A DNA stretch of 64,000 bases from Patescibacteria group bacterium (GCA_025450075.1 JANWIC010000003.1:32800-96799); one strand, 5' to 3'. Counted from the stretch's first letter, positions 4,172 to 55,157 are shown. The notes: generated by a model not told the origin, from the letters alone. Translations and numbers: made by a program.

Positions 4172-4216
<45 letters not shown>

Positions 4217-5654: not shown

Positions 5655-5695
<41 letters not shown>

Positions 5696-6252
5696 CGTCG
5701 CTTGATAGGCGACCCGCACGAAAGGTGTAACGACTTGAGCGCTGTCTTGAGAGGAGGCCCGGCGAACATTGAAATGGCTGTGAAGATGCGGCCTACCCAC
5801 ACCCGGACAAACAGACCCTGTGGAGCTTTACTAAAACTTGGCATTGGATTAGGTTCATTGATGTAGAGTATAGGTGGGAGACTTTGAAGCAGTTCCGTCA
5901 GGAATTGTGGAGTCAACAGTGTAATACCACCCTTTAATGTTTCTGATTCTAATTTGAGCCGTAATCCGGTTCAAAGACAGTGTCTGGTGGTTAGTTTGAC
6001 TGGGGCGGTTACTTTCTAAAGTGTAACGAAAGTACTCAAAGGTTCCCTCAGTTCCAATGGAAACGGAACAAAGAGTGTATTGGCATAAGGGAGCTTTACT
6101 GTTACACCTACAAGTGGAGCAGTTGCGAAAGCAGGACAAAATGGCCCTTAGGTGGCATGTGGATGCGCCTAAGATTAATGGATATAAGCTACCCCGGGGA
6201 TAACAGGCTAGTCTTGCCCAAGCGTTCATAGCGACGGCAGGGTTCGGCACCT

Positions 6253-7086
6253 ACAACTAACACAACGGGGCGCGGTAGAAGTAATTCTATTAGCACTGTT
6301 ATAAAAATTTAATTATCAGCTCATAACGGTGGAGTCCTAATTAGGTATATAATATACCTGATGGATAATACCGTGGGAAGTCTAACAAATGAACAAAAGT
6401 CAATTCTCATAGGAACTCTTTTAGGAGATGGTTTTATGAGAAAAAAGAAGAACGCTTATTTAGAAATAAACCATTGTTATAAACAAAAGGCATTGGTTGA
6501 TTGGATCTTTAATAACTTTAAGTCGTACGTTAATACTCCTCCAAAAATAAGAAGAAATAATGGAGCAAGAGAAGCTTATAGATTTTCTACAAGAAGTCTT
6601 CCAGTTTTTACTACTTAATTATGACTTATTTTATAAAAATGGAGTGAAGCATATTCCAAACGATTTAATTATTGATCCACTTGCATTAGCTGTATGGTTT
6701 ATGGATGACGGAAATAAATCTAGATCATCAATATATCTAAATACACAACAGTTTATTCTAAATGATCAAATTCAATTAATGAACATTTTAAGAAAAGAGC
6801 TTGGAATCGAATCAACTCTAAATAAAGATAAAACTTATTATAGAATTAGAATAAGAACAAGCAGTACTCCAAAATTTGTTTCACTAATTGATCAATTTAT
6901 ATTGAAAGATTTTCGATATAAATTACCACTTTGTTATGACCCCGTATCGACTTAGAACATAATGTTCTGGAGTTCTCTTTAATATAGAGAGCTAAAACGC
7001 TGACTCCTACTCTTTAATATGACGAATTAAAGACAAGAGGATGAAGGTATAGTCAGTTCTTGTAAGTAATTACGAGGTATTTTACG
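6253..7086 (+). mobile_element. Putative group I intron in 23S rRNA, inserted after the U equivalent to E. coli U2500, carrying a LAGLIDADG homing endonuclease ORF
   Basis: 834 nt of non-rRNA sequence separate ...GGCACCU from CGAUGUCGG, which are adjacent in intronless 23S. The upstream exon ends in U and the insert ends in G, which is the group I splice-site convention. The insert encodes a protein with two LAGLIDADG motifs. Confidence 0.7.
6361..6955 (+). pseudogene. Double-motif LAGLIDADG homing endonuclease gene, split by a +1 frameshift near 6560-6618 (ORFs 6361-6618 and 6560-6955)
   Basis: Motif 1 LIGTLLGDGFM lies in the first ORF and motif 2 AVWFMDDGNKS in the second. The two ORFs overlap in different frames, so the gene is either a decaying endonuclease or contains a sequencing error. 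Confidence 0.7.
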
Positions 7087-7122
7087 CGATGTCGGCTCGT
7101 CACGTCCTGGGGCTGGAGAAGG

Positions 7123-7153
<31 letters not shown>

Positions 7154-7578
7154 TGGCACGTGAGCTGGGTTCAAACCGGCGTGAGCCAGGTTGGTCTCTA
7201 TCCGGTGTGGGCGTTGGATTTTTGAAGGGAGTTCGTTCTCAGTACGAGAGGACCGGAATGAGGAAACCTCTGGTGCATCAGTTGTTCTACCAAGGGCATC
7301 GCTGAGTAGCCAAGTTTCTATTTGGATAAGTGCTGAAAGCATATAAGCACGAAGCCAATCCCAAGATGAGAAATCCTTCTTAAGACCCCTTGTAGACTAC
7401 AAGGTATTTGAGTTCTAACGCAATTATGGAGCAATCTATATGCGTGTTAGTCCTCTTTATAGGCTCTAGGTGTAAGTACAGCAATGTATTCAGCCGAGGA
7501 GTACTAATCGGTCGATAATTTTACTAAAGTCGATCATTTCGAAATTAGATCATTCTATTCAGTTTCAAGGAGCTAAAT

Positions 7579-18561: not shown

Positions 18562-20349
18562 TTGCAATTAGATACTCCAATGACATCAAATACAACTTTA
18601 CCTGTACAAGCAGATCTTCAAGCATATTATCCGGTATCATTTGAGCCGGATGTTTTTACTAAAGAAGAAAGATTCCTTTTAAATCCTTTTTTTACAAACC
18701 TTGATAAACCAGTTTTTGTTTTGCAAAATCTACCTACTGAAATTGCGGCAGCACTTGCTTCCCGTTACAGTAGGAGCATGTGGGGGCTTCGAAGAGTGTT
18801 TTTAAAGGAATATATATGGCCATTAGTTCATCCCGAGCTTCTTCCCGGATGGGAAAGCCTCGATATTGCGAGCAGGAAATCGTCCTTAGAAACAAAGGAT
18901 GAAGTTCTCGGCTTTATTACCTATCTGAATGAGCATGGAGGGCTTGAGCATGTAGCAGATATTCAACGTGCAAGAAAATTTTTTGAAAAATGGTTAAACC
19001 AATATGGAGATGATTCTATTGCAGAACTTGGATCATATTTAGTAGGGATAGAAGGAGTTTCCATGCTTTGTTCAATTTGGGGAGTAGAGAGTATTCCTTA
19101 CGCATCTCTAATTGCAAAATCAACCCGATATGTAAATTTTTCTGATAAACGTACAGATGGTGAATACAAATTTATTATTCCTGGTGAGATACGCGGAACA
19201 AAATATGAAGAAAGCTATACGAAAGCTCTCCATAATCTCTTTGCTACCTATGCGAACACGATTTCTCCCTATACAGAATATGTAAAGGGTATATACCCAA
19301 AGGGCGATGATGAAAGTGATACTTCATTTCATGCATCTCGTCAGGCAAAAGCATTTGACGACCTTCGAGAGTTGCTTCCTTTTGCAACACAGACAAGTTT
19401 TGCAATCCATGCGAACATGAGATCATTTGAAGCAATTATTAATAATCTTCTGGCTCAACCGTTTGGTGAAGCACGATGGCTAGGACAGGCTATCTTTGAA
19501 GAACTCCATACTGTTGCTCCTTCTTTAATATCAAGAGTAAATACACCAAGAGGAGCAGCTGTTCAGCAGTATCGAGCACAAATGATTACGTATAAGGGTA
19601 AATTGGGGAAAAAGGTAAAGACGAATAATGGGGTACTTGAAAAAGAAAGAATTCGATTGTTGGATTATACAAAAGATGCTGAAAAGAAAATCCTTTCAGC
19701 CTACTTATTTCATGAGGGAACTTCAGGATACGATGAGATTACGCAAAGTATTAATAAGCTTTCTGCTGAAGAAAGGAAAAAGATGCTCAAGGAGTTATTG
19801 AAATTAAGGAGTAATGGAGGTAGTAACATGCCAAGAGAGGCCATACGATTTAATACGGTAGAAGATGCATTCAAACATGCACACTATAGCTTTCTTCTTT
19901 TAATCCGTGGAGGTGATCTGCGGGATCTTTACAGACATCGCTATGCTGATAAGGCAATCTCATGTATGAATTTAAGGAATGGTTATACATTAGAAAATGA
20001 AGTGATAAAGTCTCCTTTCATTAAACAAATATCACAAGCTCTAGAAGGAGTGAAAAAAGTATATGACGATTTGGAAAAGAAAGACCCATCTATCTCCCAA
20101 TATGTCGTTCCTTTCGGGTATAGACAGGAGTTGTATCTTCAACTTAGCGCATGGGAGGTCTATTGGATTGGAGAACTGAGAACAGGCACTCAAGCGCGTC
20201 CAGAGTATGGAGAAATATGTAGGCAGATGGCCAGCATTGCAAAAAGAGTAGACCCAAATATCTTTAGCGCTATGATCATAGGAGAAGAAGAAGGAAGAAT
20301 CCCAAGAAGAAAATATGCTAAAAAGTTGGAAGAAAAAGCAAAAGAATAA
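18562..20349 (+). CDS. Hypothetical 595-aa protein with ThyX-like (flavin-dependent thymidylate synthase) motifs scattered along its length
   Basis: ALASRYSRS resembles ThyX ARxCYxS, EHGGLEH resembles HxSVLEH, and there are an SxRY motif (KSTRYVNF) and a late RHR...S motif (YRHRYADKAIS). The order and spacing do not match a canonical 220-250-aa ThyX. Confidence 0.35.
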   Translation: MQLDTPMTSNTTLPVQADLQAYYPVSFEPDVFTKEERFLLNPFFTNLDKPVFVLQNLPTEIAAALASRYSRSMWGLRRVFLKEYIWPLVHPELLPGWESLDIASRKSSLETKDEVLGFITYLNEHGGLEHVADIQRARKFFEKWLNQYGDDSIAELGSYLVGIEGVSMLCSIWGVESIPYASLIAKSTRYVNFSDKRTDGEYKFIIPGEIRGTKYEESYTKALHNLFATYANTISPYTEYVKGIYPKGDDESDTSFHASRQAKAFDDLRELLPFATQTSFAIHANMRSFEAIINNLLAQPFGEARWLGQAIFEELHTVAPSLISRVNTPRGAAVQQYRAQMITYKGKLGKKVKTNNGVLEKERIRLLDYTKDAEKKILSAYLFHEGTSGYDEITQSINKLSAEERKKMLKELLKLRSNGGSNMPREAIRFNTVEDAFKHAHYSFLLLIRGGDLRDLYRHRYADKAISCMNLRNGYTLENEVIKSPFIKQISQALEGVKKVYDDLEKKDPSISQYVVPFGYRQELYLQLSAWEVYWIGELRTGTQARPEYGEICRQMASIAKRVDPNIFSAMIIGEEEGRIPRRKYAKKLEEKAKE

Positions 20350-30174: not shown

Positions 30175-30792
30175 TTACTTCTTTTTCTTTTTATTTAATT
30201 TTCCGGTATATCCCATTGCTTTATGATGAGATAATTCATGCTGGTCAAAAATTTCATCAGTATTAAACCAGAGGTCAATCTCAAAATCAGCTTCTTCCTT
30301 GTTTCCAGAAGCGTGAATAAGGTTATAAAAAGGACGTTTCAGATCGTTAGCAAGATCAGCGTTATCGAAGCTATAATCGCCTCTGATAGTCCCTGGTGAT
30401 GCCAATGCTGGAACAGTAGATCCAACAAACTTTCGAACCAATTTGATGGCATCTGGCCCCTCAAAGACCATAGCCAGGACAGGTCCAGCTGTTAGGTATT
30501 CAACATTCCATGCTTTAATTAACTTTCCAATTTCCATTGGATTATCAGTTCCAAGTCTTTTAATTGGATCAATTTTTTTCTCTTTGTATTCATCAAGTGT
30601 CCTATTTCCAACTGTCTCGAGCCACTCTTTTGAATTAGGATAGTGTTTATGACCCATTTCTTCAGTCGCTTCAACTAGTTTCATAGCACAGAGTTTTAGC
30701 CCAACACGTTCAAATCTGTGAATGATTTCACCCATAATGCCTCGTGCAACACCATCATGTTTTATTATTACTAAAGTTTTTTCGTATGCCAT
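30175..30792 (-). CDS. ndk: Nucleoside diphosphate kinase paralog A, with a roughly 45-aa internal insertion
   Basis: KTLVIIKHDGVARG, the active-site NLIHASG and a TIRGD motif. 205 aa versus about 140 aa for typical NDK. Confidence 0.8.
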   Translation of the reverse strand: MAYEKTLVIIKHDGVARGIMGEIIHRFERVGLKLCAMKLVEATEEMGHKHYPNSKEWLETVGNRTLDEYKEKKIDPIKRLGTDNPMEIGKLIKAWNVEYLTAGPVLAMVFEGPDAIKLVRKFVGSTVPALASPGTIRGDYSFDNADLANDLKRPFYNLIHASGNKEEADFEIDLWFNTDEIFDQHELSHHKAMGYTGKLNKKKKK

Positions 30793-30798
30793 AACGTA

Positions 30799-31380
30799 TT
30801 AAAAAAATATTGCATCTGATCGATCATATTCCATTGGTTCAAAATCTAGTCCAAACCAAAGCGAAATCTCTCGATTTGCCTCATTTACATCTCCTGAGGC
30901 ATGGACAAGATTACGAACGACTCGATTATTCAAATTTGCAGACATTGGTGAGTCATGTGAAAGATCTCCTGTAATTGTTCCTTTTTCTGCTGTGAATGGG
31001 GTAGTGTCACCACGAAGTTTTCTTGCAACAGAAATTGCATTGACTCCTTCCCAAATCATAACAATAACCGGGCTCATTAGCATGTATGCTTTGAGGTTAT
31101 TTACAACATCAACGCCGATTTTATACGGATCATCAGTTCCCATTTCTTTAACAATATCAAGCCCTAATTCTCTATATGCCCTCACACTTTTTTCACCGGC
31201 CATTTCAACCCATTGGCGATTTGAAATATCATACATTTTTTCTATTATTTTCTCATCTGCCTGGGTCATTTTACAGGCAACCAATTTTAAACCGACTTTT
31301 TCAAATCGATCCATTATGTTTCCGACTAATCCCCGTAAAAGAGTATCTGGTTTTAAAACAACCAATGTATCTTCAATCAT
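30799..31380 (-). CDS. ndk: Nucleoside diphosphate kinase paralog B, with an internal insertion
   Basis: DTLVVLKPDTLLRG, NLVHASGD and TITGD. 193 aa. It sits 6 nt upstream of paralog A on the same strand. Confidence 0.8.
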   Translation of the reverse strand: MIEDTLVVLKPDTLLRGLVGNIMDRFEKVGLKLVACKMTQADEKIIEKMYDISNRQWVEMAGEKSVRAYRELGLDIVKEMGTDDPYKIGVDVVNNLKAYMLMSPVIVMIWEGVNAISVARKLRGDTTPFTAEKGTITGDLSHDSPMSANLNNRVVRNLVHASGDVNEANREISLWFGLDFEPMEYDRSDAIFF

Positions 31381-31457: not shown

Positions 31458-31532
31458 GTCTCTGTAGCTCAGTCCGGATAGAGCATCTCGGTCCTAACGA
31501 GGGGGTCGCAGGTTCGAATCCTGCCAGGGACA
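31458..31532 (+). tRNA. tRNA-Arg (anticodon CCT)
   Basis: GTCTCTG/CAGGGAC acceptor stem. Anticodon loop GTCCTAA. TTCGAATCC T-loop. Confidence 0.75.
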
Positions 31533-31546
31533 TTTTTTAATCTTCT

Positions 31547-32209
31547 ATGACAAGAAAAACAAAAAGGATCATTGTAAAGAGTGTATTTAATTCTCTCATG
31601 ATTGGATCTATATTGTTCCTTACTGCATCTTTTGGGCCATTTTTACGGTATGAAATTGAATATCGTCTTTTTGTCCTTTCCGGGAAAAAATATGCAATTG
31701 ATTCCACAAACGGTACTACAAACACAGGCCTTATTCAAGCTATCTTCTCTCATAGCGAAACTATCTTTATCAAGCCGATTGACTCTAATTTTGATATCAT
31801 TATCCCTAAAATCGGTTTAAATGAAAGGATTATTGATAATGTTGATAGCAATAATGTCCAAGCTGTAGAGGATAGTTTAAAGATTGGAGTAGGGAGAGCG
31901 AGAGGGACTGCTTATCCTGATCAATACGGAAATATGTATTTATTTGCTCATTCGAGTACAAATGTATTGTCCATTGACAGGTATAATGCGGTGTTTACAT
32001 TGCTACGGGATATGAAAGACGGTGATCTTGTTTATGTTTTTTATAAAGGAAAAGAATATACCTATCAAATATATACGCAGATTATTGTTTCTCCAAATGA
32101 TACAAAAGACATTACTTTCAATGCTCCATATCCACAAATAACGCTGCAAACATGTGATCCACCTGGATTTGATATCAATAGGCTACTTCTTAAAGCTAAA
32201 CTAATCTAA
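31547..32209 (+). CDS. Sortase-family transpeptidase (membrane-anchored)
   Basis: N-terminal TM helix. Catalytic His (LFAHSS), a TLxTC motif (ITLQTCDP) and a downstream conserved Arg (NRLLLK). Confidence 0.65.
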   Translation: MTRKTKRIIVKSVFNSLMIGSILFLTASFGPFLRYEIEYRLFVLSGKKYAIDSTNGTTNTGLIQAIFSHSETIFIKPIDSNFDIIIPKIGLNERIIDNVDSNNVQAVEDSLKIGVGRARGTAYPDQYGNMYLFAHSSTNVLSIDRYNAVFTLLRDMKDGDLVYVFYKGKEYTYQIYTQIIVSPNDTKDITFNAPYPQITLQTCDPPGFDINRLLLKAKLI

Positions 32210-32210
32210 G

Positions 32211-33671
32211 TTATAAACCTTGTATGGAAATGGAATATATACCCTTGTCTAATGGAGAGTTATCTTGTGTAAGATTTGCCATTTCAAAGTAGATGTCACT
32301 AGCATTTGGTGATAAAAGGATATTTGGTGAAGTGATAAGAGTACTTAATAATGTATCATTATTACTCCCATCAAAATTTACCGCCTTTATATCGTAATAT
32401 GTTCCACTGGTAACCGACTGGTCTTTTGTGGTGTATAAAATGATTCGGGAAGATTTGTCCCAAATAAAGTAAGTAACATCGCTATATCTTAAATTCAGGT
32501 TAAAAGATTCATTCGTTTCAATCGAGTAAGTATACATGGTTCCATTTACATCCCTGTATAAAATATACTTTCCGTCAGGAGAATAAGAAAGTGGATACAT
32601 GCTGATGTTATTTATTACTTGAAGATGGTTAGGAGAAATCTCTGGGGCATTGATTTCAATATCTTTCCCCTCCAGGCTATAACTATAATCATCCCCTGTA
32701 CTTATAAAATTCTTGATTGGAGTTGTACTCGTAATAATGGTTGTTTCATTTGTTCCATCAAATTGAACTGTACTTACACTGTAGGTTGGATTTTGGTTAT
32801 TGGTTTTTTTAATAACGTAAAAAACATTGTCAGAAACATTGACATCAGTAATCTGTGAAGTTGTTCCTGCATCGGTTAATAAAATCTTTTGTCCGTCAGT
32901 AATATCAATAGATATAAACATTTGTGAATTAAAAAGGACAATATGGCTATCATCTTTTCCCCATTCAACGGTTGAATACATTGTCGGGTCAATAAAGTTT
33001 GATATATCTATTGCTTGTCCAGAACCATCAGTATTGAACACAAAGTATTTTTCAGGAAGGTTTGGAGCAGAAAAGTCAAATAACGCTCGTGTGCTATTTG
33101 GAGCAACTGCTGCTTGCTTTAACATATAAGCGCTATTAATATTCAGTATATTTGTATTAAAGAGGAATTGGGTATTGTCTCCAATATTTAAAAACCCGCT
33201 TCCAAATGAATGGAAATATACATTCATTCCAGCAGTCTTATCTTTTGTTTCATATACATAATTATTTTTCCCAAAGAATGTTGCGCCGACATTTACCAAA
33301 GATTCCTGCCTTGTTGGTTTGATTGATGATGGGAAGAGGATAGGATAAACTAAGTTAATCTTCCCCCCTTGAACAGTAATCTTTGTCGTCCAAGGTACGA
33401 ACCCATCTTTTTTAATTGAAAGAGCATATTCTCCAGGAACAAGATTAAAAACTGATACGGGAGATTTCCCTTCATTTTTATTGTTAATATAGACATCTGT
33501 TCCGCTTGGAGTAGAGGTAATTTTAATTACTCCTGTTTTTTGAATTGTCTTGGAATCAAGATTTAGTGTGTAGCCATTGGCAAAAAAGATTATAATGATT
33601 GTTGTTATTAGGACAAGTACAAATCCTAAAAAGGAAATGAGAATGCTTTTTTTCATGGTATAATCAGACAA
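32211..33671 (-). CDS. PEGA-domain surface protein with a beta-propeller-like C-terminal region and an N-terminal TM anchor
   Basis: PEGA motif (VPGEYALSIKKDGFVPW). Repetitive beta-strand-rich Ser/Thr/Asn/Tyr segments resemble TolB/WD40-like propellers. No LPXTG motif. Confidence 0.55.
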   Translation of the reverse strand: MSDYTMKKSILISFLGFVLVLITTIIIIFFANGYTLNLDSKTIQKTGVIKITSTPSGTDVYINNKNEGKSPVSVFNLVPGEYALSIKKDGFVPWTTKITVQGGKINLVYPILFPSSIKPTRQESLVNVGATFFGKNNYVYETKDKTAGMNVYFHSFGSGFLNIGDNTQFLFNTNILNINSAYMLKQAAVAPNSTRALFDFSAPNLPEKYFVFNTDGSGQAIDISNFIDPTMYSTVEWGKDDSHIVLFNSQMFISIDITDGQKILLTDAGTTSQITDVNVSDNVFYVIKKTNNQNPTYSVSTVQFDGTNETTIITSTTPIKNFISTGDDYSYSLEGKDIEINAPEISPNHLQVINNISMYPLSYSPDGKYILYRDVNGTMYTYSIETNESFNLNLRYSDVTYFIWDKSSRIILYTTKDQSVTSGTYYDIKAVNFDGSNNDTLLSTLITSPNILLSPNASDIYFEMANLTQDNSPLDKGIYSISIQGL

Positions 33672-33745
33672 AGGGATACACTAGCTTTAAAAAGTTCCTA
33701 AAAGCTTATATAATTATAGCACACTCAGTATATTATAAAAATATT

Positions 33746-34747
33746 GTGTTAGCAAAAAAAATAGGGATTGATTTCGGTACGGCAAACTCGATTATATACA
33801 TAGAAGACAGGGGTGTAGTATTAAATGAGCCAACTGTTGTAGCCGTTTCATTAAATAACAATAAGATTTTAGCAGTCGGAAAAGAGGCAAAGGAAATGCT
33901 TGGGAAAACCCCAAGCGGTATAATTGCCCGAAGACCATTAAAAAACGGAGTTATCGCTAGCTATAAAGTTACTGAAGTACTACTCAGGTATTTTCTCTCA
34001 AAAACGCTTGGATATTCAAAAATATTTCGTCCCGAAGTAGTTATCAGTATTCCTGCAGGTGCGACATCTGTTGAAAAAAGAGCGGTCTATGAAGCAATCA
34101 TGTCTGCAGGTGCCAAAAAAGCATATCTTGTTCCAGAACCATTTTTAGCAGCTATCGGCGCAGGATTACCCATTAATACATCTGCGGGAAATATGATAGT
34201 TAATATAGGAGGGGGAACAACGGAAATTGCAGTAATTTCTTTAAATGGTATCGTTGCATGGAACAGTGAACGTGTTGCAGGGGATGCGTTTAATGATGGA
34301 ATTATTACATTTCTTCGAAGGAAAAATTCAATTACAATTGGAGAACAAATGGCAGAAGAGGTAAAGATCCAAATTGGATCAGCTATGCCTCTTGATGAAC
34401 CTCTTAGTATGGAAATTAAGGGAAGAGATGCTACTACAGGTATGCCCAAGACAATGCTTGTGACAACTAATGATTTAGTGGATGCATTTAAACCTCCTAT
34501 TACTCTTATCATCCAGGCAATTAAAACAGTACTGGAAAAGACTCCTCCTGAACTTGCATCCGATATCATTGATAGGGGTATTGTTCTCTCGGGGGGAAGT
34601 TCAATGCTTCGTTCATTAGACATCTTACTAACCAAAGCAATTGGTGTGCCGTTTCATTTAGCTGATGAGCCAATATTTTGTGTCGCAAAGGGGACCGGTA
34701 TTGCTTTAAAGCATTTCGATATTTTAGAAAATATTGTCGTTAAATAA
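33746..34747 (+). CDS. mreB: MreB/Mbl-family actin-like protein, second paralog
   Basis: Phosphate-1 IGIDFGTANS, phosphate-2 DIGGGTTEI and an adenosine motif. 333 aa. Its 3-prime end overlaps the next gene by 14 nt. Confidence 0.85.
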   Translation: MLAKKIGIDFGTANSIIYIEDRGVVLNEPTVVAVSLNNNKILAVGKEAKEMLGKTPSGIIARRPLKNGVIASYKVTEVLLRYFLSKTLGYSKIFRPEVVISIPAGATSVEKRAVYEAIMSAGAKKAYLVPEPFLAAIGAGLPINTSAGNMIVNIGGGTTEIAVISLNGIVAWNSERVAGDAFNDGIITFLRRKNSITIGEQMAEEVKIQIGSAMPLDEPLSMEIKGRDATTGMPKTMLVTTNDLVDAFKPPITLIIQAIKTVLEKTPPELASDIIDRGIVLSGGSSMLRSLDILLTKAIGVPFHLADEPIFCVAKGTGIALKHFDILENIVVK

Positions 34748-36056
34748 TATGGAAGGGATTGCTCTTTTATTTTCTGTCGCCTTATCAGGGATTGAACGTC
34801 TTTCAATAAATCTTGGATTTACCCTTACCCCGATTTTCCTGGTTGCTTGTTTCGTACTCATTTTAGCCTTCCTGAAAAGGGGATATGGGGTAAATATCTT
34901 TAAAGATAGAATATTTTTTATAGTGTTAGCAGTATACATAGTCGCCCTGCTATCGTGCGTATCTTCTCCTTTCAGGGCAGCATCGCTTAAGTCTTCCTTA
35001 TATGTTCTGATATATGTGTCGCTAATCTATTGTTTAAGTATTTTACCCTTTACAAAAAATAGCTATTCATTAATGAGGTGGGGAATCTATTCCGGTCTCT
35101 GTCTCTTTAGTCTTTATGGAATATTACAGTACCTTCGTTATCAATCGGGACATTTTCCCGATCTTTTTACTTTTCCCATTCCACATAATAATGCACTCTC
35201 TCCGCTGGATTTTGTCATACACTCAGGAACCTCAACGATACTTAGACCGAATAGCGGATTTAATGACGTCAATGCTGCAGCAGCATTCGCTTTACTCTAT
35301 CTGCCAATCATCCTATATTACACCTATTTAAAAATATTTCAATACATTCGTTTTAGAAAGATAACTGAATTGTACAAGGCAATAGGTTGGGTACTTTTAT
35401 TTTTAATCTCTCTCTATGCGTTTATACTTATGGCTTCTCGTGCCGCTTTGATTGCCATATTTATTCTTATTCCGTTTATTGTGATTCTGTTGGCATTTAG
35501 GTTAATAAAAAATAAAAAGCTTGTCTTTTTCTCATTAGTTGTTTTGGTTGTGGTTATTTTTGGTGCAGCGGTTTATCGCCGCTCTAGCATTTCAACCAAA
35601 CTGAATCAATTATATAATCAAGAGTATTCTGCGAAGGCTCATGTGGCGTATACCGATTCTGCAATCCGTGAATTTAGGCACTACCCTTTAACTGGAGGGG
35701 GAGTAGGGAGCTTTTATCAATACTTCCAATCTGAAGAGATGAAGGGAATCATTGGTGGATATTACCCGTCTGTTGATAATCCCCCCATGTTGATTAAGGT
35801 TTTAGCTGAGGAAGGAATACTGGGATTTATTGCATACCTAATCCTATTTAGTATCCCAGTTATTATATGTATCAAAAAGTTTATTAAAGATTCATCTCTT
35901 AACCATGCGATGTTCTGGCTTTCTTTTGCAATAGGATTTGTAGGGCTATTCCTTTCAAATCTTTTCCATTCAAACATGCAGCTATTCTTTACCGCAGTAT
36001 TTATTGGATTAGTACTTTGGCTTGCAAGAAGAGAGAATAATTTACCCGAAACTTAG
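34734..36056 (+). CDS. O-antigen ligase / Wzy_C-family polytopic membrane protein
   Basis: Wzy_C signatures: SRAALIA, HYPLTGGGVG, and a periplasmic-loop H...N...L..EEGILG motif. About 10-12 TM helices. Confidence 0.65.
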   Translation: MSLNNMEGIALLFSVALSGIERLSINLGFTLTPIFLVACFVLILAFLKRGYGVNIFKDRIFFIVLAVYIVALLSCVSSPFRAASLKSSLYVLIYVSLIYCLSILPFTKNSYSLMRWGIYSGLCLFSLYGILQYLRYQSGHFPDLFTFPIPHNNALSPLDFVIHSGTSTILRPNSGFNDVNAAAAFALLYLPIILYYTYLKIFQYIRFRKITELYKAIGWVLLFLISLYAFILMASRAALIAIFILIPFIVILLAFRLIKNKKLVFFSLVVLVVVIFGAAVYRRSSISTKLNQLYNQEYSAKAHVAYTDSAIREFRHYPLTGGGVGSFYQYFQSEEMKGIIGGYYPSVDNPPMLIKVLAEEGILGFIAYLILFSIPVIICIKKFIKDSSLNHAMFWLSFAIGFVGLFLSNLFHSNMQLFFTAVFIGLVLWLARRENNLPET

Positions 36057-36283
36057 TTGACCACTCTTCTTAAGGAAAATGTACGTCATTGGCAGTCGGT
36101 GCTAATATTGTTAACGGGTATGTATTTGCTATCTACAGAAGGCAATCACGCTTTTTACGATCTGGAATGTTTCAAATATATGTATTAGTCCTTCAGACTT
36201 ATATTGCAATAGAACTATTTCTTTGTATTTCCTTGCACTTGATATATAAAGGGGGTATACTTTTCCAGAATTAATCCCGTTCT

Positions 36284-37861
36284 ATGAAGAAATCGAAAAC
36301 TGAGAAAGTCTCCAACACATCACCTAAATACAATATTGTATTTATTTCTCCTGAAGTAGCTCCTTTTTCAAAGTTTGGCGGTTTAGCAGATGTATCTTGG
36401 GCACTCCCTAGAGCATTAAAACGATTAGGCCATAATGTAAAGATTATTATGCCGAAATTCGGAAGTATTGACGATGAAAAATTTGGAATCAAAGCATATA
36501 AACAAAATTTAAAAGTACCAACAGCAGATAAAGATATTGTATGCAATGTAAAAATTGGATATATACCTGATGGCCTTGAGGTGTATCTTATTGAGAACAT
36601 GGAATATTATGAGATGCGTGCCAATGTGTATGGATATAAAGATGATGCACGAAGGTTTGCACTGCTCTCTAAAGGGGCATTGGAGCTTATCAGATCTCAA
36701 AAATGGCAGGTTGATATAATCCATTCTAACGATTGGATGACCGGATATGTTTCCAATTATTTAAAAACTGAATATAAGCTTGATCCAATATTAAATAAGG
36801 CTGCCTCAGTTTTCACAATCCATAATTTGGCTTTGCAAGGGGTAAATAGAAGAACACTTACTCAGACGCAAATCGACCAGGGAACATCACCTCTTCCGGA
36901 TCTTTTAGACGATGATATCTTTTTTGTAAATGGAATGCTGAGAGGTATTGTTTATTCTGATTTTGTAAATACAGTTTCAGAAAGATATGCAAAAGAAATA
37001 TTGACTCCAGAATATGGAGAAGGAATGGATAAAATCCTTCAAGAGATGAGAAATAAACTTGTAGGGATACGTAACGGTGTGGATTACGATGTATTAAACC
37101 CAAGAGTTGATAAAAATATTTATGTTAATTATGATTTAGGTGATATTGAAAAGAAAAAAGAAAATAAAATAGCATTTCAGAAAGAATTTGATTTGGTTAT
37201 TGATCCTGCAATCCCTCTTGTTGGGTTTGTAGGGCGTTTGAGCGAGCAAAAAGGATTGGGATTGCTTCATGATACCATTCGACCTCTTCTTGCTAATTTA
37301 AACTTTCAGTTTGTGATCGTAGGTGGAGGAGATGAGTATTGGGAAAAGTTTTTTGCCAAACTTATTAAAGATTTTCCTGGGAAAGTAAATGGATATCTTA
37401 TGATTAGTACCACGTTTGCTCAAAAACTTTATGCTGCATGCGATATACTTGTTCATCCATCGAAGTTTGAGCCTTGTGGAATAACACATGCTATAGCAAT
37501 GAGATATGGAACAGTCCCTATTGTTCGTGAGACAGGAGGTCTTGCTGATTCTGTAATAGATTATGGAAAAGACAGGAAGAATGGAGATGGATTTATGTTC
37601 AAAGAATTCAATGAAATGGCATTTCTTATTCAACTTGTTTCAGCACTTACTACATTCAAATCAAATAAACGAGAATGGAAAAAAATTCAATCCCGCTCTA
37701 TGAGAAAAGATCTTTCATGGAACGCCTCTGCTGTAAAATATATCGACCTTTATGAAAAGGCGATTGATAGACATGTAAAGTGGTTAAAGAAAGAAGGATT
37801 GGTAATGGCAGACTCTCCAGTAGAAGTGCCAGGTTATTCTTCGATAGATATCCTCAGTTAA
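36284..37861 (+). CDS. glgA: GT5-family glycosyltransferase (glycogen/starch-synthase-like)
   Basis: N-terminal SPEVAPFSKFGGLADV (KxGGL motif) and a C-terminal GT-B domain with ETGGLADSV. No glgB/glgC are adjacent. Confidence 0.75.
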   Translation: MKKSKTEKVSNTSPKYNIVFISPEVAPFSKFGGLADVSWALPRALKRLGHNVKIIMPKFGSIDDEKFGIKAYKQNLKVPTADKDIVCNVKIGYIPDGLEVYLIENMEYYEMRANVYGYKDDARRFALLSKGALELIRSQKWQVDIIHSNDWMTGYVSNYLKTEYKLDPILNKAASVFTIHNLALQGVNRRTLTQTQIDQGTSPLPDLLDDDIFFVNGMLRGIVYSDFVNTVSERYAKEILTPEYGEGMDKILQEMRNKLVGIRNGVDYDVLNPRVDKNIYVNYDLGDIEKKKENKIAFQKEFDLVIDPAIPLVGFVGRLSEQKGLGLLHDTIRPLLANLNFQFVIVGGGDEYWEKFFAKLIKDFPGKVNGYLMISTTFAQKLYAACDILVHPSKFEPCGITHAIAMRYGTVPIVRETGGLADSVIDYGKDRKNGDGFMFKEFNEMAFLIQLVSALTTFKSNKREWKKIQSRSMRKDLSWNASAVKYIDLYEKAIDRHVKWLKKEGLVMADSPVEVPGYSSIDILS

Positions 37862-38872: not shown

Positions 38873-39418
38873 TTATTTAGTTGCTTCTACTGCTTTAAGA
38901 GTGTATAAAAAGTTTCGTTGTATTCCAGTAAGTGTATTTACAATTGAATATAGTGGATATTTTATTGTTCCCACTGTTTTTGCAATCATTTCAGGCTTTG
39001 CTGGAAGTTTTGAAATCTCCATAACCTTTTCCTTATTATAGAGTATATGTTCTATAACGCCGATTTTAATTGAAGATGTGCTATTGCTACTGATAAATTC
39101 TACAATAGCTTTCAAACTTGGCCCCATTTCTTCAGGTGCAAATACAGCTCCTGTACTGCCTTGAAGAGTTACATCAAGTGTTTCATCATGTTCCTTTAAG
39201 GCCTTTGAAAAGATCGTATTTTTGACCAAAATATATTTTGATCCTTGATCTGCCAGTTTGTTCTTAAATTGCTCTACTGCAGATGTTTTAATAGCGGACA
39301 TATCAAGTAAGACGATGGTCTGATAATTGTCCAGATTATCTTTGTAGGACTTGTAGATATCCTGCTTTTTTTGTTTTGTCTTTGCCATATCAAAAAAATA
39401 AAATAAAAAAGACTTCAC
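38873..39418 (-). CDS. rplJ: 50S ribosomal protein L10
   Basis: Assigned from its position between rplA and rplL, its length (181 aa) and an L10-like N-terminal region. Confidence 0.85.
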   Translation of the reverse strand: MKSFLFYFFDMAKTKQKKQDIYKSYKDNLDNYQTIVLLDMSAIKTSAVEQFKNKLADQGSKYILVKNTIFSKALKEHDETLDVTLQGSTGAVFAPEEMGPSLKAIVEFISSNSTSSIKIGVIEHILYNKEKVMEISKLPAKPEMIAKTVGTIKYPLYSIVNTLTGIQRNFLYTLKAVEATK

Positions 39419-39515
39419 ATAAATATTTAATGAAGTCTCAGACGTGAATCTCGATAGGATTTTAACCGATTCCGGACCTATTGTCTCCGATTCATTAAAT
39501 AATACTATTTAATTG

Positions 39516-45256: not shown

Positions 45257-46120
45257 CTATATTTCCACTTTGGAAAGTTTCTTTTGTATCACATAGATGG
45301 AAAAAAGTATTTCAACTAAACCAAGGGTTAAAAGAAACAATAGTGCAAAAGAAGGAAATGAAGAAAGGTTTTCGGGATAGATGAAGTAGGGAAAATGAAT
45401 TCCAAGAAGCCCAAACCATACCAAAATAAATTGTACAAGAGAGAAAATTGCCATTTGTCTCTTATTCCCTTTTAATGAATATCTGCTGAAAAGGAGCATA
45501 GATATGATAAAAATAAAGAATATGAATATATCCGGAATTGTTGTAAGTAATGTATATGGCAAAAACTTGAGAAGTACCACTGGTAAGGCTAGAAAAAAAA
45601 GCAATTGGAATAGGTGTGATTCATGAATCATTGTAGCAAGTGATTCTGATGTATGCATTGCAATATAGGCAAATACAATAGAACTCATACTAATTGCGCT
45701 AGTCAGCATGAAGGTAGATAAAAAAATATCTACCATGATATATACCAATCCCGAAGGAGAAATATATGAAACGAGAAGGGAAGGAATTGATAATAGGCAA
45801 CTTGCATTTATAAAAAGATAAAGCAGTTTCTTTGCAAAGTTATCATTTTTGCCTAAATGTATAAATCTTAAAATCAAAAAGAAGAAGGCAAAAAATACAA
45901 GAACTAAATTCCTATGGAAATAAATAAGGGGTAACGCTAAAAAAAGTGTGGCACTCCAGGTCCATAGCTGACGTGTATATACAGGTATACGATAATAGGG
46001 TGATGGTCCGGGTAATAGTTTTGGGAACGTACAATAAACAGCTGTGCTGTACTCGAGTGTTGCTAGCAATAAAAGGATAACAAATACTGCTGCAAAAATG
46101 CTGGATAAAAATAGTAACAT
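45257..46120 (-). CDS. Hypothetical polytopic membrane protein
   Basis: 287 aa with about 8 hydrophobic helices and no recognised motifs. Confidence 0.45.
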   Translation of the reverse strand: MLLFLSSIFAAVFVILLLLATLEYSTAVYCTFPKLLPGPSPYYRIPVYTRQLWTWSATLFLALPLIYFHRNLVLVFFAFFFLILRFIHLGKNDNFAKKLLYLFINASCLLSIPSLLVSYISPSGLVYIMVDIFLSTFMLTSAISMSSIVFAYIAMHTSESLATMIHESHLFQLLFFLALPVVLLKFLPYTLLTTIPDIFIFFIFIISMLLFSRYSLKGNKRQMAIFSLVQFILVWFGLLGIHFPYFIYPENLSSFPSFALLFLLTLGLVEILFSIYVIQKKLSKVEI

Positions 46121-46256: not shown

Positions 46257-47312
46257 ATGAATGTTTTTAATTCGGTATGGGGAGTATTTTCACATGATAT
46301 TGGTATCGATCTGGGAACGGCAAATACCCTGGTTTCAGTAAAGGGACAGGGGGTTCTCATTTCAGAGCCTTCAGTTGTAGCTGTAAATAAAAAAACAGGT
46401 GAAATATTAGCTGTCGGGAGTGAAGCGCGCCGGATGGTTGGACGTACACCAGCACATGTCGTGGCAATAAGGCCTCTTCGTGATGGAGTAATTTCTGATT
46501 TTGAATCAACGAAAGAAATGATTCAATATTTCATTCAAAAGGTACATTCGCAATCATCAAAGTTTTTTAAGATTCCTCGACCTCGCGTTGTTATAGGAAT
46601 TCCTTCATCTGTTACCGAAGTTGAGAAACGGGCTGTTGTTGATGCAGCGATTCAAGCTGGAGCTCGTAAAGCATATATCATTGAAGAACCCATGGCTGCA
46701 GCTATTGGAGCTGGTCTTCCGGTTACAGAGGCAACTGGAAGCATGATTGTTGATATTGGTGGGGGAACTACAGATATAGCTGTTATGTCTTTAGGTGGAA
46801 TTGTTGTAGATAAATCACTTCGTGTTGCAGGAGATGAGATGGATCAAGATATTGTAAATTATGTTCGACATAAATATAACATGCTCATAGGTGATAAGAC
46901 AGCTGAGGATATAAAGATATCAATTGGATCGGCTTTCCCTTCAAAAGAAAATAAAGCTGTGGAGCTTCGTGGCCGTGACCTATTACAAGGACTTCCGAAA
47001 TTTATTAATATAACCAGTTCTGAGATCCGGGAAGCGATTATGAATTCATTAAATATAATAATAGAATCAATTAAAGATGCAATAGAAGAAACTCCTCCTG
47101 AACTGTTATCTGATATCGCTGATCAAGGAATTGTTATTGCTGGTGGTGGAGCGTTGATACCGGGTATAGATAAGCTCATTGCTGATAGAGTTCGTATGCC
47201 GGTACGTATAGCCCAGGATCCTCTTACCTGTGTGGTACGGGGAACTGAGATCGTTATAGAGGATATTGACTTACTCTCAAAAGTTGAAGTGAATAAAGAT
47301 GAATTTGAATAA
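46257..47312 (+). CDS. mreB: Rod shape-determining protein MreB (canonical copy, in an operon with mreC and mreD)
   Basis: IGIDLGTANT, DIGGGTTDIA. 351 aa. Followed by mreC and mreD. Confidence 0.95.
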   Translation: MNVFNSVWGVFSHDIGIDLGTANTLVSVKGQGVLISEPSVVAVNKKTGEILAVGSEARRMVGRTPAHVVAIRPLRDGVISDFESTKEMIQYFIQKVHSQSSKFFKIPRPRVVIGIPSSVTEVEKRAVVDAAIQAGARKAYIIEEPMAAAIGAGLPVTEATGSMIVDIGGGTTDIAVMSLGGIVVDKSLRVAGDEMDQDIVNYVRHKYNMLIGDKTAEDIKISIGSAFPSKENKAVELRGRDLLQGLPKFINITSSEIREAIMNSLNIIIESIKDAIEETPPELLSDIADQGIVIAGGGALIPGIDKLIADRVRMPVRIAQDPLTCVVRGTEIVIEDIDLLSKVEVNKDEFE

Positions 47313-48114
47313 TGAAAAATATAAACAACAGATTATTCCTCTTATTATTTATCTCTTTTTGAGTTTTGTCCTTGTCTCCTTATCTATGGTCCGCTTCTTT
47401 GATCCAATTTATTTAATTACCGATGCGCTGACTAAAAATTTGCGATCTAGCCTCTATGTTACAGGTGTTGATTTGGCGAATACATTTACATATATAGGTA
47501 ATTCAAATACATTAATTCAGGATAACAAAAAACTAAAGCAGGAGCTGTATTCGCTTCATTCAATTCAAGCACAAAATTATCTTTTAACGAATGAAAATAA
47601 AGCATTATCTGAACAACTTGGAACGATGGTAAAAAGTTCTAACGTTACTCCTGTAATGGCAGAAATTATTTCTACCACAACTACTTCTGATTATATTACG
47701 ATTGGAGTAGGTGGAAATGAGGGTGTTGCGAACAATAATATTGTAGTATACAAGAATATTCTTTTAGGCATAGTTACCGATGTTCGACCTGAAAGTTCAG
47801 TAGTCCAATTAGTAAGTAGCAAAGACAGTTCAGTTCCCGTGAGTGTAAGTGGAAGCCAGGTGCAAGGCATTCTTACAGGATCAGTGGAATCCGGACTTAT
47901 CATTAATGATATATTACCGGATGAGACAGTTGATCAAAATGCTATGGTCCTTACATCTTCATTAGGTGGAGGATTATATCCTTCAGGATTACTTGTTGGA
48001 TATATCTCATCTATACAACCTGTAACAAGCCAACCATTTAAAATAGCTCAAGTAAAACCAGCTGTTGATATTTCAACAATTGATTATTTATTCGTTTTAA
48101 AAAACAAATCATGA
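47299..48114 (+). CDS. mreC: Rod shape-determining protein MreC
   Basis: N-terminal TM helix, a coiled coil and a Ser/Val-rich beta domain. It overlaps the mreB stop by 14 nt. Confidence 0.8.
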   Translation: MNLNNEKYKQQIIPLIIYLFLSFVLVSLSMVRFFDPIYLITDALTKNLRSSLYVTGVDLANTFTYIGNSNTLIQDNKKLKQELYSLHSIQAQNYLLTNENKALSEQLGTMVKSSNVTPVMAEIISTTTTSDYITIGVGGNEGVANNNIVVYKNILLGIVTDVRPESSVVQLVSSKDSSVPVSVSGSQVQGILTGSVESGLIINDILPDETVDQNAMVLTSSLGGGLYPSGLLVGYISSIQPVTSQPFKIAQVKPAVDISTIDYLFVLKNKS

Positions 48115-48602
48115 AGTATGTAACAGGAACAATTCTAATAGTGGCATTATGTATTATCTATACATCTTTTTTAACAGGTCTTCGATTTATTTTTCCCTGG
48201 TTTAATGTGGTATATGTCTGCTTATTTGCTTATTATATTTCAAGAGAATCTAAATTATCATTATACCTTTTTTTTATAGGGGGGATATTTTTAGATATAT
48301 TTACCATCAGTCAGGTTGGGTTTACCAGTGCAAACTTTTTCATCAGTCTCTTGATTTATGCTCTTCTTACAAGAATATTCCCTGCAGAAAGAAGCGGTAA
48401 GCTTTTATCACTTCTGGTTTCCAGCACGTGTTTTTATCTAATCTCTTATATCACCTTAAATTTCATAACAAACCATGGCATAGCAGGTCTTTTGTTATAC
48501 ATCCCATGGGGTATTGCAAGTGCATTATGCATATTTTTCCTTTCATTTACGATTTCGTTTCTTTTCCCGGTCAATCATGAGAGAAAGATCAGTATCGGTT
48601 AA
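48111..48602 (+). CDS. mreD: Rod shape-determining protein MreD
   Basis: Small 163-aa membrane protein with 4-5 TM helices, overlapping the mreC stop. Confidence 0.7.
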   Translation: MKYVTGTILIVALCIIYTSFLTGLRFIFPWFNVVYVCLFAYYISRESKLSLYLFFIGGIFLDIFTISQVGFTSANFFISLLIYALLTRIFPAERSGKLLSLLVSSTCFYLISYITLNFITNHGIAGLLLYIPWGIASALCIFFLSFTISFLFPVNHERKISIG

Positions 48603-53282: not shown

Positions 53283-55157
53283 ATGGCCGAAGAACTTACT
53301 GACTGGACAATCGAAGAATTTTCTTTCACTATTGAACCTCCTCGTCCATCTGAGGATCAGTCTCATGCATGGAAAATGCTGTATTTCAAAATTGGAATGA
53401 TTGCATCAATTGCAATAGTCTTTATCTCTTTAATCAATTTAGAAATCGTAAATGGAGCAAAACTGCAAACAGAGTCAAATACACAACGAATTTTTGTAGA
53501 AACACTTCCCGCTCCCCGAGGTATTATATATGATAGAAATCATATTCCACTTGTATATAATATCGATACATATAAGGTAGTTATTGATACAAATATATTT
53601 GATCCAAAAAATCAAGGAAGCGAGTTTGCCAGTATTGCAAACCTATTACACATTCCTGTTGAGCAGGTTTCGTCAATATATACAAAAGGGATCGTAGCCC
53701 ATGAGGATGTTATTACAGTTCAAGATAATATTAACAAAGATCAGGTAATTGCTTTAAGCACCGATCCAATCTATAAAGGGATTCGTGCTGAATCCAGCAC
53801 CATCAGGCAGTACCCATATATTCAGTATACTGCTGCAATCCTTGGTTATACTGGTGGAGTAAGTGAAAGTGACTTGCATTCAAATGCAGGTCTCAATAGT
53901 CAAGACACAATTGGGAAGGCTGGAATTGAGGCTCAATATGATACTGCACTCCGTGGTGTGGATGGTCAAAAGATCGTTGAAGTAAATACCCTTGGTCAGG
54001 TAGTGAATGTTATTAAAGAAGAGGATCCTATTCCCGGAAACAATATTATTCTTTCACTTGATATTAATGTACAAAAAAATCTTTCAGATGCTCTTGCTTT
54101 AGGTATTAAAGACAGCTCCGCAACAGGAGGTGCCTCCATTATTCAAAATATAAATGATGGTAGTATTATCGCAATGGTAACACTTCCTACATATGATAAT
54201 AATAAGTTTGCACAAGGTATTTCACAGTCCGATTATGCATCCTTATTGAATGATCCGAATACTCCCCTTATTAATAGAGCAATTTCAGAAGCACAACCGC
54301 CTGGCTCAGTAATGAAAACAATTACAGCTTCAGCTGCCCTTCAGGAAAAAGATATTACAACCAGTACATTAGTTGATGATAAAGGAACTTTCGATTTGGG
54401 AGGAATCGTTTTCCAAAACTATGAAAAGATAGCACGAGGTATTATTAATGTCATAGGGGGATTGCAATGGTCATCCAATGTCTTCTTCTATAACGTCATC
54501 CATTCATATTTAAACATTAATACGTTTGTGAAATATGAGAAGCTTTTTGGAGCTGGTTCTTTGACAGGAATCGATCTTCCCGGAGAACAACCTGGTGAAC
54601 TTTCAAGTCCCCAAGTTAAACAAGAATTAACAGGACAAGTCTGGTTTGGAGGAGATAGTCTAAATGCCGCTATCGGTCAGGGATATACTTTAGTAACCCC
54701 AATTCAGGTAGTGAACTGGATTACATCAATTGCAAATGGAGGTACATTATTCAAACCACAAATGGTTTCACGAATAGAAAATGGAACAAGTAATGCAGCA
54801 CAGGTGTTTAATGGTTCAGTTGTTCGCCAAGGATTTGTAGATGATAAATATCTCAGCATCGTAAGACAGGGAATGCATGTTGCTGTGCAAAGCGGTATCG
54901 ACCATACCCTCTATACTTCAGCTGTCGATATTGCAGGAAAAACAGGTACTGCAGAATTTGGAGCTTTAGATGCATATGGGCAATATACTCATGAGCATGC
55001 TTGGGCTTCAGGATTTGCCCCATACGATAAACCGCAAATTTCTTTTGTAGTATTTTTGGAAGGGGGAGGATTGAGTTCAAACTCTGAAAGAGTTGCAAAA
55101 AGTTTTCTAACCTGGTATTACGGAACATATCTAAAACAAAATTCAAATAATCTATGA
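53283..55157 (+). CDS. mrdA: Penicillin-binding protein 2 (peptidoglycan D,D-transpeptidase, class B PBP)
   Basis: N-terminal TM helix and a PBP dimerisation domain. Transpeptidase SxxK (SVMK), SxN (SSN) and KTG (KTGTAE) motifs. Confidence 0.85.
   Translation: MAEELTDWTIEEFSFTIEPPRPSEDQSHAWKMLYFKIGMIASIAIVFISLINLEIVNGAKLQTESNTQRIFVETLPAPRGIIYDRNHIPLVYNIDTYKVVIDTNIFDPKNQGSEFASIANLLHIPVEQVSSIYTKGIVAHEDVITVQDNINKDQVIALSTDPIYKGIRAESSTIRQYPYIQYTAAILGYTGGVSESDLHSNAGLNSQDTIGKAGIEAQYDTALRGVDGQKIVEVNTLGQVVNVIKEEDPIPGNNIILSLDINVQKNLSDALALGIKDSSATGGASIIQNINDGSIIAMVTLPTYDNNKFAQGISQSDYASLLNDPNTPLINRAISEAQPPGSVMKTITASAALQEKDITTSTLVDDKGTFDLGGIVFQNYEKIARGIINVIGGLQWSSNVFFYNVIHSYLNINTFVKYEKLFGAGSLTGIDLPGEQPGELSSPQVKQELTGQVWFGGDSLNAAIGQGYTLVTPIQVVNWITSIANGGTLFKPQMVSRIENGTSNAAQVFNGSVVRQGFVDDKYLSIVRQGMHVAVQSGIDHTLYTSAVDIAGKTGTAEFGALDAYGQYTHEHAWASGFAPYDKPQISFVVFLEGGGLSSNSERVAKSFLTWYYGTYLKQNSNNL

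Follow-up and report, generated by a model that had tools for sequence, protein, structure and literature searches.

A second MreB paralogue in a Patescibacteria genome and its Wzy_C-family neighbour: a candidate tie between an actin-like protein and wall-glycan assembly

Why would a bacterium encode a second MreB immediately before a membrane protein of the O-antigen-ligase kind? The question is raised by a stretch of 64,000 nucleotides (nt) from a Patescibacteria group bacterium (GCA_025450075.1, JANWIC010000003.1:32800-96799), hereafter the window, in which a short MreB of 333 amino acids (aa), here called MreB2, is followed by a polytopic protein with a Wzy_C domain. A preliminary description of this locus had joined these two, together with a sortase, a PEGA/beta-propeller protein and a glycosyltransferase of family 5 (GT5), into a single cell-envelope module, in which MreB2 filaments would be dedicated to positioning a surface-polymer ligase or polymerase. 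The open reading frames (ORFs) of the window were scanned with Pfam and NCBIfam, other regions of the genome lying outside it. All five genes are present where they had been placed, and their Pfam families agree:

31547..32209, plus strand: sortase with an N-terminal transmembrane (TM) anchor; Pfam Sortase, 72 bits (4e-20; cut-off 26.6)
32211..33656, minus strand (ORF 32211-33671): PEGA/propeller protein; Pfam PEGA, 54 bits (1.4e-14), with weak beta-propeller matches
33657..33745, no strand: intergenic region of 89 nt separating the divergent PEGA and mreB2 genes; each strand has promoter-like hexamers
33746..34747, plus strand: MreB2, 333 aa, GTG start; Pfam MreB_Mbl, 421 bits
34749..36056, plus strand (alternative TTG start at 34734): polytopic protein with Wzy_C domain and predicted WaaL fold; Pfam Wzy_C, 52.2 bits
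36284..37861, plus strand: GlgA-type GT5, soluble; Pfam Glyco_transf_5, 231 bits

Our answer, in brief, is that MreB2 would belong to a second MreB system linked to the assembly of wall glycans, with the Wzy_C protein as its enzyme in this particular lineage. We hold this answer at slightly less than an even chance, and the comparisons of sequence and gene order on which it is built are set out below.

First, MreB2 itself was compared with other MreBs. Its match to Pfam PF06723 (421 bits, cut-off 27) covers positions 2-325 of the 327 in the model, and it scores 424 bits against NCBIfam TIGR00904 (cut-off 365.75) and 431 bits against NF010539 (cut-off 293). The nucleotide-binding motifs GIDFGTANS (phosphate 1), NIGGGTTEIAV (phosphate 2) and LSGGSSML (adenosine) can be read in its translation and align with those of MreB1, the other MreB of the window. 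It lacks an amphipathic extension at its short N-terminus, and the median number of residues before GIDxGT is 6 in proteins of the clade described next versus 12.5 in other MreBs; a scan for clade-specific residues returned few signatures, namely this short N-terminus and E97 instead of Arg. In our reading of the alignment, an Ile-Phe pair of MreB2 appears to sit where the Thermotoga protein has its membrane-insertion loop.

The nearest homologues of MreB2 carry source names of Candidatus Dojkabacteria (WS6, Patescibacteria). Identity reaches 60-65% to about 110 of the 120 Dojkabacteria proteins listed and 50-57% to MreB2-type proteins of other Patescibacteria, yet it is 45% to MreB1 of the same genome. 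We placed MreB2 in a neighbour-joining (NJ) tree built from 183 sequences over 333 columns (100 bootstraps; distance method only, unrooted), whose Patescibacteria MreBs were among the matches listed, at least 600 and mostly distant MreBs, from a search of genome contigs with MreB2. It falls in a clade of 82 sequences, from Patescibacteria only and with all the MreB2-like proteins of Dojkabacteria (bootstrap 99/100), which excludes the MreB1 of the window and every mreC-linked MreB in 100/100 replicates. Two full-length MreB_Mbl proteins in one genome might have arisen by recent, lineage-specific duplication of a canonical MreB, but given the low identity between them and the separate, well-supported clade we reject this explanation, to which we give practically no weight. 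It also disagrees with a published split: MreBs of the candidate phyla radiation (CPR) form two clades, with some Parcubacteria and Microgenomates species holding both, and two roles have been suggested for them (Takahashi et al., bioRxiv 10.1101/2020.05.13.095042). Our tree reproduces this split, so that the paralogy in itself is not new; the preprint differs from our analysis in that its accessible text contains no gene-context analysis. Thus, in line with the preliminary description, MreB2 is a distinct paralogue rather than a recent duplicate; judged from the sequences, Patescibacteria have two ancient paralogues of MreB, and the locus holds the second.

The first paralogue is found further along the window, together with other genes of cell elongation:

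46257..48602, plus strand: mreB1-mreC-putative mreD operon, assigned from Pfam and position
53283..55157, plus strand: class B penicillin-binding protein (PBP2-like), with PBP_dimer and Transpeptidase domains

The operon, with mreB1 at 46257-47312, mreC at 47299-48114 and the putative mreD at 48111-48602, corresponds to the canonical mreBCD that had been placed at 46.2-48.6 kb. Its mreB and mreC are borne out (Pfam 2e-30 for MreC), while the third gene, encoding a polytopic protein of 163 aa with no Pfam match, is mreD by position only. MreB1 scores 499 bits against NF010539, and against the MreBs of Geobacillus, Caulobacter and Thermotoga it reaches 392, 359 and 355 bits, versus 338, 318 and 327 for MreB2; these higher scores to MreBs of solved structure mark it as the more conventional paralogue. 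No mreC lies next to MreB2-clade genes in the loci sampled, and neither mreC nor mreD is found downstream of MreB2 in the window.

Two further observations concern the arrangement of mreB genes. Divergent from mreB1, at 45257-46120 on the minus strand, the window encodes a polytopic membrane protein of 287 aa with no Pfam or NCBIfam match; this layout recalls that of the mreB2 locus, but the protein is of another kind. In six loci of Parcubacteria type (L017, L026, L027, L030, L054 and L011; L numbers designate the loci sampled), both paralogues lie on one strand, 3-4 kb apart (6001-7008 and 10976-12028 in L026), in the order PEGA (opposite strand), murA, mreB2-type, holB, frr, rseP, proS and mreB1-type. 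The second MreB ORF of L011 goes on through an MreC domain (528 aa), the result of a fusion or else of a frameshift in the assembly.

What, then, accompanies genes of the MreB2 clade, if not mreC? To answer this we surveyed the ORFs of 95 sequences, the window and 94 loci, with custom hidden Markov models (HMMs). An MreB2-clade gene is present in 55 of the loci, the window included, and 39 hold only another MreB, from Bdellovibrionota, Myxococcota and others, several of them with mreC. The following neighbours were counted at the MreB2-clade loci:

PEGA/propeller protein, upstream of MreB2 on the opposite strand, full-length HMM match: about 38 of 55 clade loci, and 0 of 39 others
MurA, directly adjoining MreB2: 16 of 55
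TagA/WecG glycosyltransferase, downstream of MreB2, often followed by a family 4 glycosyltransferase (GT4): 14 of 55
DUF4012 protein, N-terminally anchored, directly upstream of MreB2 on the same strand: 9 of 55
Wzy_C protein, downstream of MreB2: 7 of 55

None of the five was found near the non-clade MreBs (0 of 39 loci). MreB2-clade genes are therefore flanked by envelope genes, namely those for PEGA, MurA, TagA/WecG, DUF4012 and Wzy_C proteins, and their steadiest neighbour is the PEGA/propeller protein, not the Wzy_C protein. The PEGA gene directly adjoins MreB2 in loci of Dojkabacteria and Levybacteria type, with murA intervening in those of Parcubacteria type, and in L005 and L091, whose flanking genes are rearranged, the PEGA gene and MreB2 still adjoin. 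As a separate observation, in a further group of Patescibacteria (L013-L016, L019, L022, L024 and L069; e.g., 3654-5990 of L024) a DUF4012 protein of 460-780 aa stands in the place of the PEGA protein.

The PEGA gene of the window most likely starts with the ATG at 33656, giving a protein of 481 aa (P0124), for which 3-4 cytoplasmic residues, one TM helix and an otherwise extracytoplasmic chain are predicted, in agreement with the N-terminal anchoring previously proposed for it. Its AlphaFold2 (AF2) model (pLDDT 74) has a helix at residues 2-26, strands at 29-103 forming a beta-sandwich, and then a beta-propeller of about seven blades. The predicted fold is thus that of PEGA surface domains and TolB-type propellers, with TolB and Lp49 among the top PDB matches; these matches are to generic propellers, with TM-scores of 0.23-0.37, and the protein differs from TolB-type propellers in its N-terminal TM anchor and in that no Tol-Pal partners are present.

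We then turned to the pair that mreB2 forms with the Wzy_C gene. The two genes had been said to overlap by 14 nt, which was taken to suggest co-translation. The overlap exists only with the TTG start at 34734, which gives a protein of 440 aa; the ATG at 34749, used for the NCBI product (P0001, 435 aa), lies 1 nt after the MreB2 stop. Tight coupling is nevertheless real with either start, since the stop-start distance, -13 or +1 nt here, measures -4 to +3 nt in six orthologous contigs, over MreB2 identities from 89 to 62%. No terminator-like site was found between the two genes. In the divergent region before mreB2 there are matches to promoter consensus, and to nothing more than consensus, on the plus strand (TTTAAA-17-TATAAT, 33686-33714) and on the minus strand (TTGCTA-17-TATACT, 33755-33727); as a whole, the promoter-like signal of the 89 nt shows no enrichment over shuffles. 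From this arrangement we infer that mreB2 and the Wzy_C gene would be co-transcribed as a two-gene operon, divergent from the PEGA gene.

The pair recurs in seven Dojkabacteria contigs, with MreB2 identities to the window down to 62%, as listed here:

L001/L002, MreB2 89% identical: PEGA (minus), MreB2 (plus), Wzy_C (plus); L002 ends inside the Wzy_C gene, so that its junction is visible and its downstream flank is not
L003, 84%: MreB2 (plus), Wzy_C (plus); the upstream sequence is absent from the contig
L093, 77%: PEGA (minus), MreB2 (plus), Wzy_C (plus)
L092, 64%: PEGA (minus), MreB2 (plus), Wzy_C (plus)
L004, 63%: PEGA (minus), MreB2 (plus), Wzy_C (plus)
L094, 62%: PEGA (minus), MreB2 (plus), Wzy_C (plus)

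Conservation of the pair, which the preliminary description had named as a check, thus holds within a part of the Dojkabacteria, but the Wzy_C gene is missing from this place in five further Dojkabacteria lineages and in all the Patescibacteria sampled outside the Dojkabacteria. It follows that MreB2 is not dedicated to a ligase or polymerase, contrary to what had been suggested, for its orthologues do without Wzy_C both in those Dojkabacteria and throughout the Patescibacteria sampled.

What kind of enzyme does the second gene of the pair encode? Its product has about 11 hydrophobic or TM segments, with a loop of 71 aa (residues 277-347) before the last helices, and its sole Pfam match is Wzy_C (PF04932), at 52.2 bits for a cut-off of 31.7 and over all positions of the model (1-149 of 149). 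The gene order would also suit an ordinary mreB-rodA pairing, if the protein were a divergent, RodA-like polymerase of the SEDS family. This option gains from the fact that no SEDS gene (FTSW_RODA_SPOVE) lies beside the mreB1-mreC-putative mreD cluster, beside the PBP2-like gene or elsewhere among the ORFs of the window. However, the protein has no Pfam match to SEDS (PF01098) at E <= 0.01, and a profile of four Wzy_C orthologues, searched against all PDB sequences, retrieved only WaaL (7TPG, E 5e-5), even at E <= 10. WaaL/Wzy_C and SEDS proteins share a distant common fold, and in a fold search WaaL came out on top and SEDS proteins next, two programs agreeing (AF2 model with a pLDDT of 51, used for the WaaL-versus-SEDS comparison only). 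On these grounds we reject the SEDS identity as very improbable, and the earlier assignment to Wzy_C rather than to SEDS/RodA stands.

The likeness to WaaL of Cupriavidus metallidurans (CmWaaL; PDB 7TPG/7TPJ), Wzy and PglL comprises the Wzy_C domain, the polytopic build, the big loop before the last helices and an Arg, invariant in the Wzy_C orthologues, in the column of CmWaaL R191. The differences are an identity of about 15-17%, at which these columns are aligned, an invariant His in the column of R265, a column of H313 that is not conserved, and the lack of a match to any NCBIfam subfamily. We thus regard the 440-aa protein as a predicted WaaL-fold enzyme, to which SEDS proteins are structurally related at a greater distance; it may be a ligase, a polymerase or an O-oligosaccharyltransferase (O-OTase). 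Word-based homologue searches gave 3 matches for the Wzy_C protein and 15 for the PEGA protein, numbers that are small because both evolve fast, and which make for shallow AF2 alignments; among metagenome contigs searched with an alignment of five Wzy_C sequences, 24 pattern matches were obtained and 0 were confirmed.

The third of these activities deserves separate consideration, since the protein could be a PglL/PilO-like O-OTase that glycosylates, for example, pilins, sortase substrates or the PEGA/propeller protein, and this would fit with either view of MreB2. The Pfam Wzy_C family covers O-OTases too, a large exported protein and a sortase adjoin, and among the ORFs of the window there is neither a Wzx flippase nor a chain-length regulator. 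Furthermore, Patescibacteria are not, to our knowledge, makers of lipid A, so that a true WaaL-type ligase would find no lipid A-core acceptor, and the same ORFs yielded no genes for lipid A. Yet the His that is essential in PglL and WaaL is that of the column not conserved here; no NCBIfam subfamily is matched; the sortase is not conserved together with the MreB2-Wzy_C pair; and the gene of a family 2 glycosyltransferase (GT2) that overlaps the Wzy_C stop in L004 and L094 suggests polysaccharide synthesis. Altogether, we consider an O-OTase unlikely.

The family memberships, the paralogy, the adjacency and its distribution are observed directly, unlike the mechanism that they invite. In the mechanism that we propose, filaments of MreB2, lying against the inside of the membrane, would organise a wall-assembly activity, separately from MreB1-MreC(-MreD), and this activity would handle an undecaprenyl-linked glycopolymer of the wall or surface. 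Here, the Wzy_C enzyme would polymerise or transfer the polymer on the outer face; elsewhere, the same spot would be taken by TagA/WecG and GT4 (Levybacteria type), by MurA (Parcubacteria type) or by a DUF4012 protein. The PEGA/propeller protein would be the outside component common to most lineages. The more ambitious form of this proposal is a Patescibacteria-wide second MreB system, made of MreB2, the PEGA/propeller protein and lineage-specific enzymes for lipid-linked glycans, which would pattern secondary glycopolymers independently of MreB1-MreC, with MreB2 directly guiding a WaaL-fold enzyme in this lineage much as MreB does RodA; in that form we find it rather unlikely. Physical positioning of the Wzy_C protein by MreB2 filaments would be pure conjecture.

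A number of observations weigh against the tie to wall-glycan assembly. With regard to the proteins, contact between MreB2 and either the Wzy_C or the PEGA protein, as well as the nature of the polymer, are things that we infer, and with its 3-4 cytoplasmic residues the PEGA protein cannot easily touch MreB2. At the WaaL H313 column, proteins of the window type have Asp, and those of the L004 type apparently Tyr. In addition, the Wzy_C protein of the window (34749-34820) is missing a hydrophobic N-terminal helix of about 22 aa that all of the four to five orthologues have, so that its N-terminus would need to face outward for the remaining topology to hold; it may be either a functional variant or a copy in decay. 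With regard to the pathway, Pfam revealed no Wzx flippase, initiating phosphoglycosyl transferase or LCP ligase among the ORFs of the window, where the Wzx/Wzy pathway, chain-length regulator included, is thus not represented and the nearest glycosyltransferase is GlgA.

With regard to gene order, MreB2 occurs without an adjacent Wzy_C gene in five Dojkabacteria lineages (L005/L006, L007/L008, L089, L090 and L091), among them a complete genome of 1.04 Mb (L089), a locus with a WecG-family gene instead (L091), and one in which the synteny from the nucleoside-diphosphate-kinase genes to rplL is retained and Wzy_C is absent beside MreB2 (L090). The Wzy_C-positive lineages are not monophyletic in the NJ tree of MreB2 (0/100). 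This led us to reject a single gain of Wzy_C, the tree being weakly resolved; non-monophyly fits with an old pairing and repeated loss, for which an NJ tree is a weak basis. Moreover, in all Wzy_C-positive contigs with downstream flanking sequence the pair lies in one and the same syntenic region, next to the rplL cluster. The adjacency could hence stem from synteny in general and not from selection for the pair; part of its conservation, at least, would be accounted for in that way.

These gene-order data are also what speaks for an adjacency without mechanistic coupling, in which MreB2 has a general role, as a second cytoskeleton of elongation or division, and Wzy_C is an interchangeable accessory in a variable slot. 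The slot forms part of a conserved region beside the rplL-rplJ-rplA-rplK-nusG cluster; in Dojkabacteria it is variously filled by Wzy_C, by WecG, by a MATCAP-family gene or by nothing on the same strand. The Wzy_C proteins are 35-38% identical where the MreB2 proteins are 84-89% identical, and such fast divergence is typical of variable surface-glycan genes and usual for their enzymes. On the other hand, that the junction stays within -4 to +3 nt even where MreB2 identity has fallen to 62% indicates operon constraint, and what adjoins MreB2 in other lineages is again glycan or wall enzymes (TagA/WecG, GT4, GT2, MurA), which are absent near the 39 other MreBs. We therefore judge adjacency without coupling to be a serious possibility, although one well short of an even chance.

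What separates MreB2 from the rplL cluster merits an observation of its own. In several Dojkabacteria (L089, 7113-8273; L091, 8538-9689; L004, 10261-12382; L090, 7154-11168; L094, 4965-7072) this interval holds genes of the MATCAP family, i.e., tubulin tyrosine carboxypeptidase-like peptidases, and RimK/ATP-grasp_ST ligases together with a 7TM_transglut protein, that is, a set of peptide-tail ligases and peptidases beside a cytoskeletal gene. None of these genes is present in the window.

How does the proposed system of MreB2 and wall-glycan enzymes compare with known ones? The MreB tie to LCP enzymes in Bacillus is one of protein with protein and not of an operon, and the enzyme is an LCP phosphotransferase rather than a Wzy_C/GT-C protein. 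In the elongasome operon, mreB-mreC-mreD-pbpA-rodA, an MreB gene is likewise co-linear with that of a polytopic enzyme of the kind that polymerises lipid-linked glycans, but here no mreC or mreD follows MreB2, the Wzy_C protein is not of the SEDS family, and the genome has a separate mreB1-mreC cluster. A precedent is B. subtilis, a monoderm with several MreB paralogues (MreB, Mbl and MreBH), where LCP ligases for wall teichoic acid (TagTUV) were found with MreB as bait and the cytoskeleton is tied to the attachment of undecaprenyl-phosphate-linked glycopolymers (Kawai et al., reviewed in PMC7831098). MreB2 is, however, different from the Bacillus MreBH, scoring 366 bits for an NCBIfam MreBH cut-off of 515, and the split within Patescibacteria is independent.

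Full-text literature searches returned no paper that links MreB with PEGA proteins or with Wzy_C/O-antigen-ligase genes, and no description of MreB gene contexts in Patescibacteria. The second CPR clade itself being known, what is new here, as far as these searches go, is that one clade is linked to PEGA, MurA, TagA/WecG, DUF4012 and Wzy_C genes and the other to mreC. The questions addressed are how ultrasmall, mostly uncultured Patescibacteria shape their envelope, and which roles MreB may have beyond peptidoglycan. A defined two-gene operon with a divergent partner offers a testable handle on actin-like filaments that may organise secondary wall polymers, and MreB2-Wzy_C would be a natural counterpart, with the related WaaL fold, to the MreB-SEDS pairing. 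Should the adjacency be only synteny, the loci would still show CPR genomes with two functionally separated types of MreB.

The two remaining members of the supposed five-gene module fare less well. The sortase, with a TLQTC motif at residue 199 and an N-terminal TM helix, scores 48 bits against NCBIfam sortase_fam (cut-off 39) and reaches no cut-off of a class (A-F). Apart from the window, it precedes the PEGA gene in L001/L002 and L092 alone, and in L001 another gene comes between the two. The PEGA protein has neither a sorting motif of LPxT[GAS] or NPxT[GN] type nor a C-terminal hydrophobic tail; with no sorting signal and an N-terminal anchor, it was rejected as a substrate of the sortase. 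The GT5, separated from the Wzy_C gene by 227 nt, scores 483 bits against NCBIfam glgA TIGR02095 (cut-off 328), reaches no equivalog-level cut-off, and holds the motifs KFGGL (KxGGL) and EPCG. Its place after Wzy_C is shared by L001 and L092 alone; in L004 and L094 the overlapping GT2 stands instead, and in L003 and L093 Wzy_C is directly followed by rplL. No glgB, glgC or glgP was found among the ORFs of the window, in keeping with the earlier remark that GT5 occurs without glgB and glgC. That it makes a surface glucan, as also proposed, finds no supporting sign in what looks like a soluble, classical GlgA, and we rejected it both as a surface-glucan synthase and as a member of the module. 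On the evidence of gene order and motifs, the sortase and the GT5 (GlgA) are local neighbours only.

The rest of the window, which has a G+C content of about 35%, includes an rRNA operon, ribosomal-protein genes and housekeeping genes. Just upstream of the sortase region, at 30175-31380 on the minus strand, nucleoside-diphosphate-kinase-like genes for proteins of 205 and 193 aa lie in tandem, a pair also kept in L001, L090 and L092, with a tRNA gene (31458-31532, plus strand) between it and the sortase gene. Upstream of rplJ-rplL, at 39396-39508 on the minus strand, a predicted ribosomal protein L10 leader scores 44.1 bits against Rfam RF00557, whose gathering score is 44; the motif is thus detectable by Rfam in a Patescibacteria genome. 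The match to 23S rRNA (3603-7528, plus strand) extends over 3926 nt for a model of 2925 nt, amounting to an insertion of about 1 kb, and the region holds an ORF for a LAGLIDADG_2 homing endonuclease (6560-6955, plus strand; 84 bits) and a further ORF (5855-6250, minus strand). The insertion and the endonuclease ORF together indicate an intron in the 23S gene; such introns are common in CPR bacteria. Finally, an ORF of 595 aa (18562-20349, plus strand), about twice the usual length of ThyX, contains two Thy1 (ThyX) stretches and may encode a duplicated or fused thymidylate synthase.

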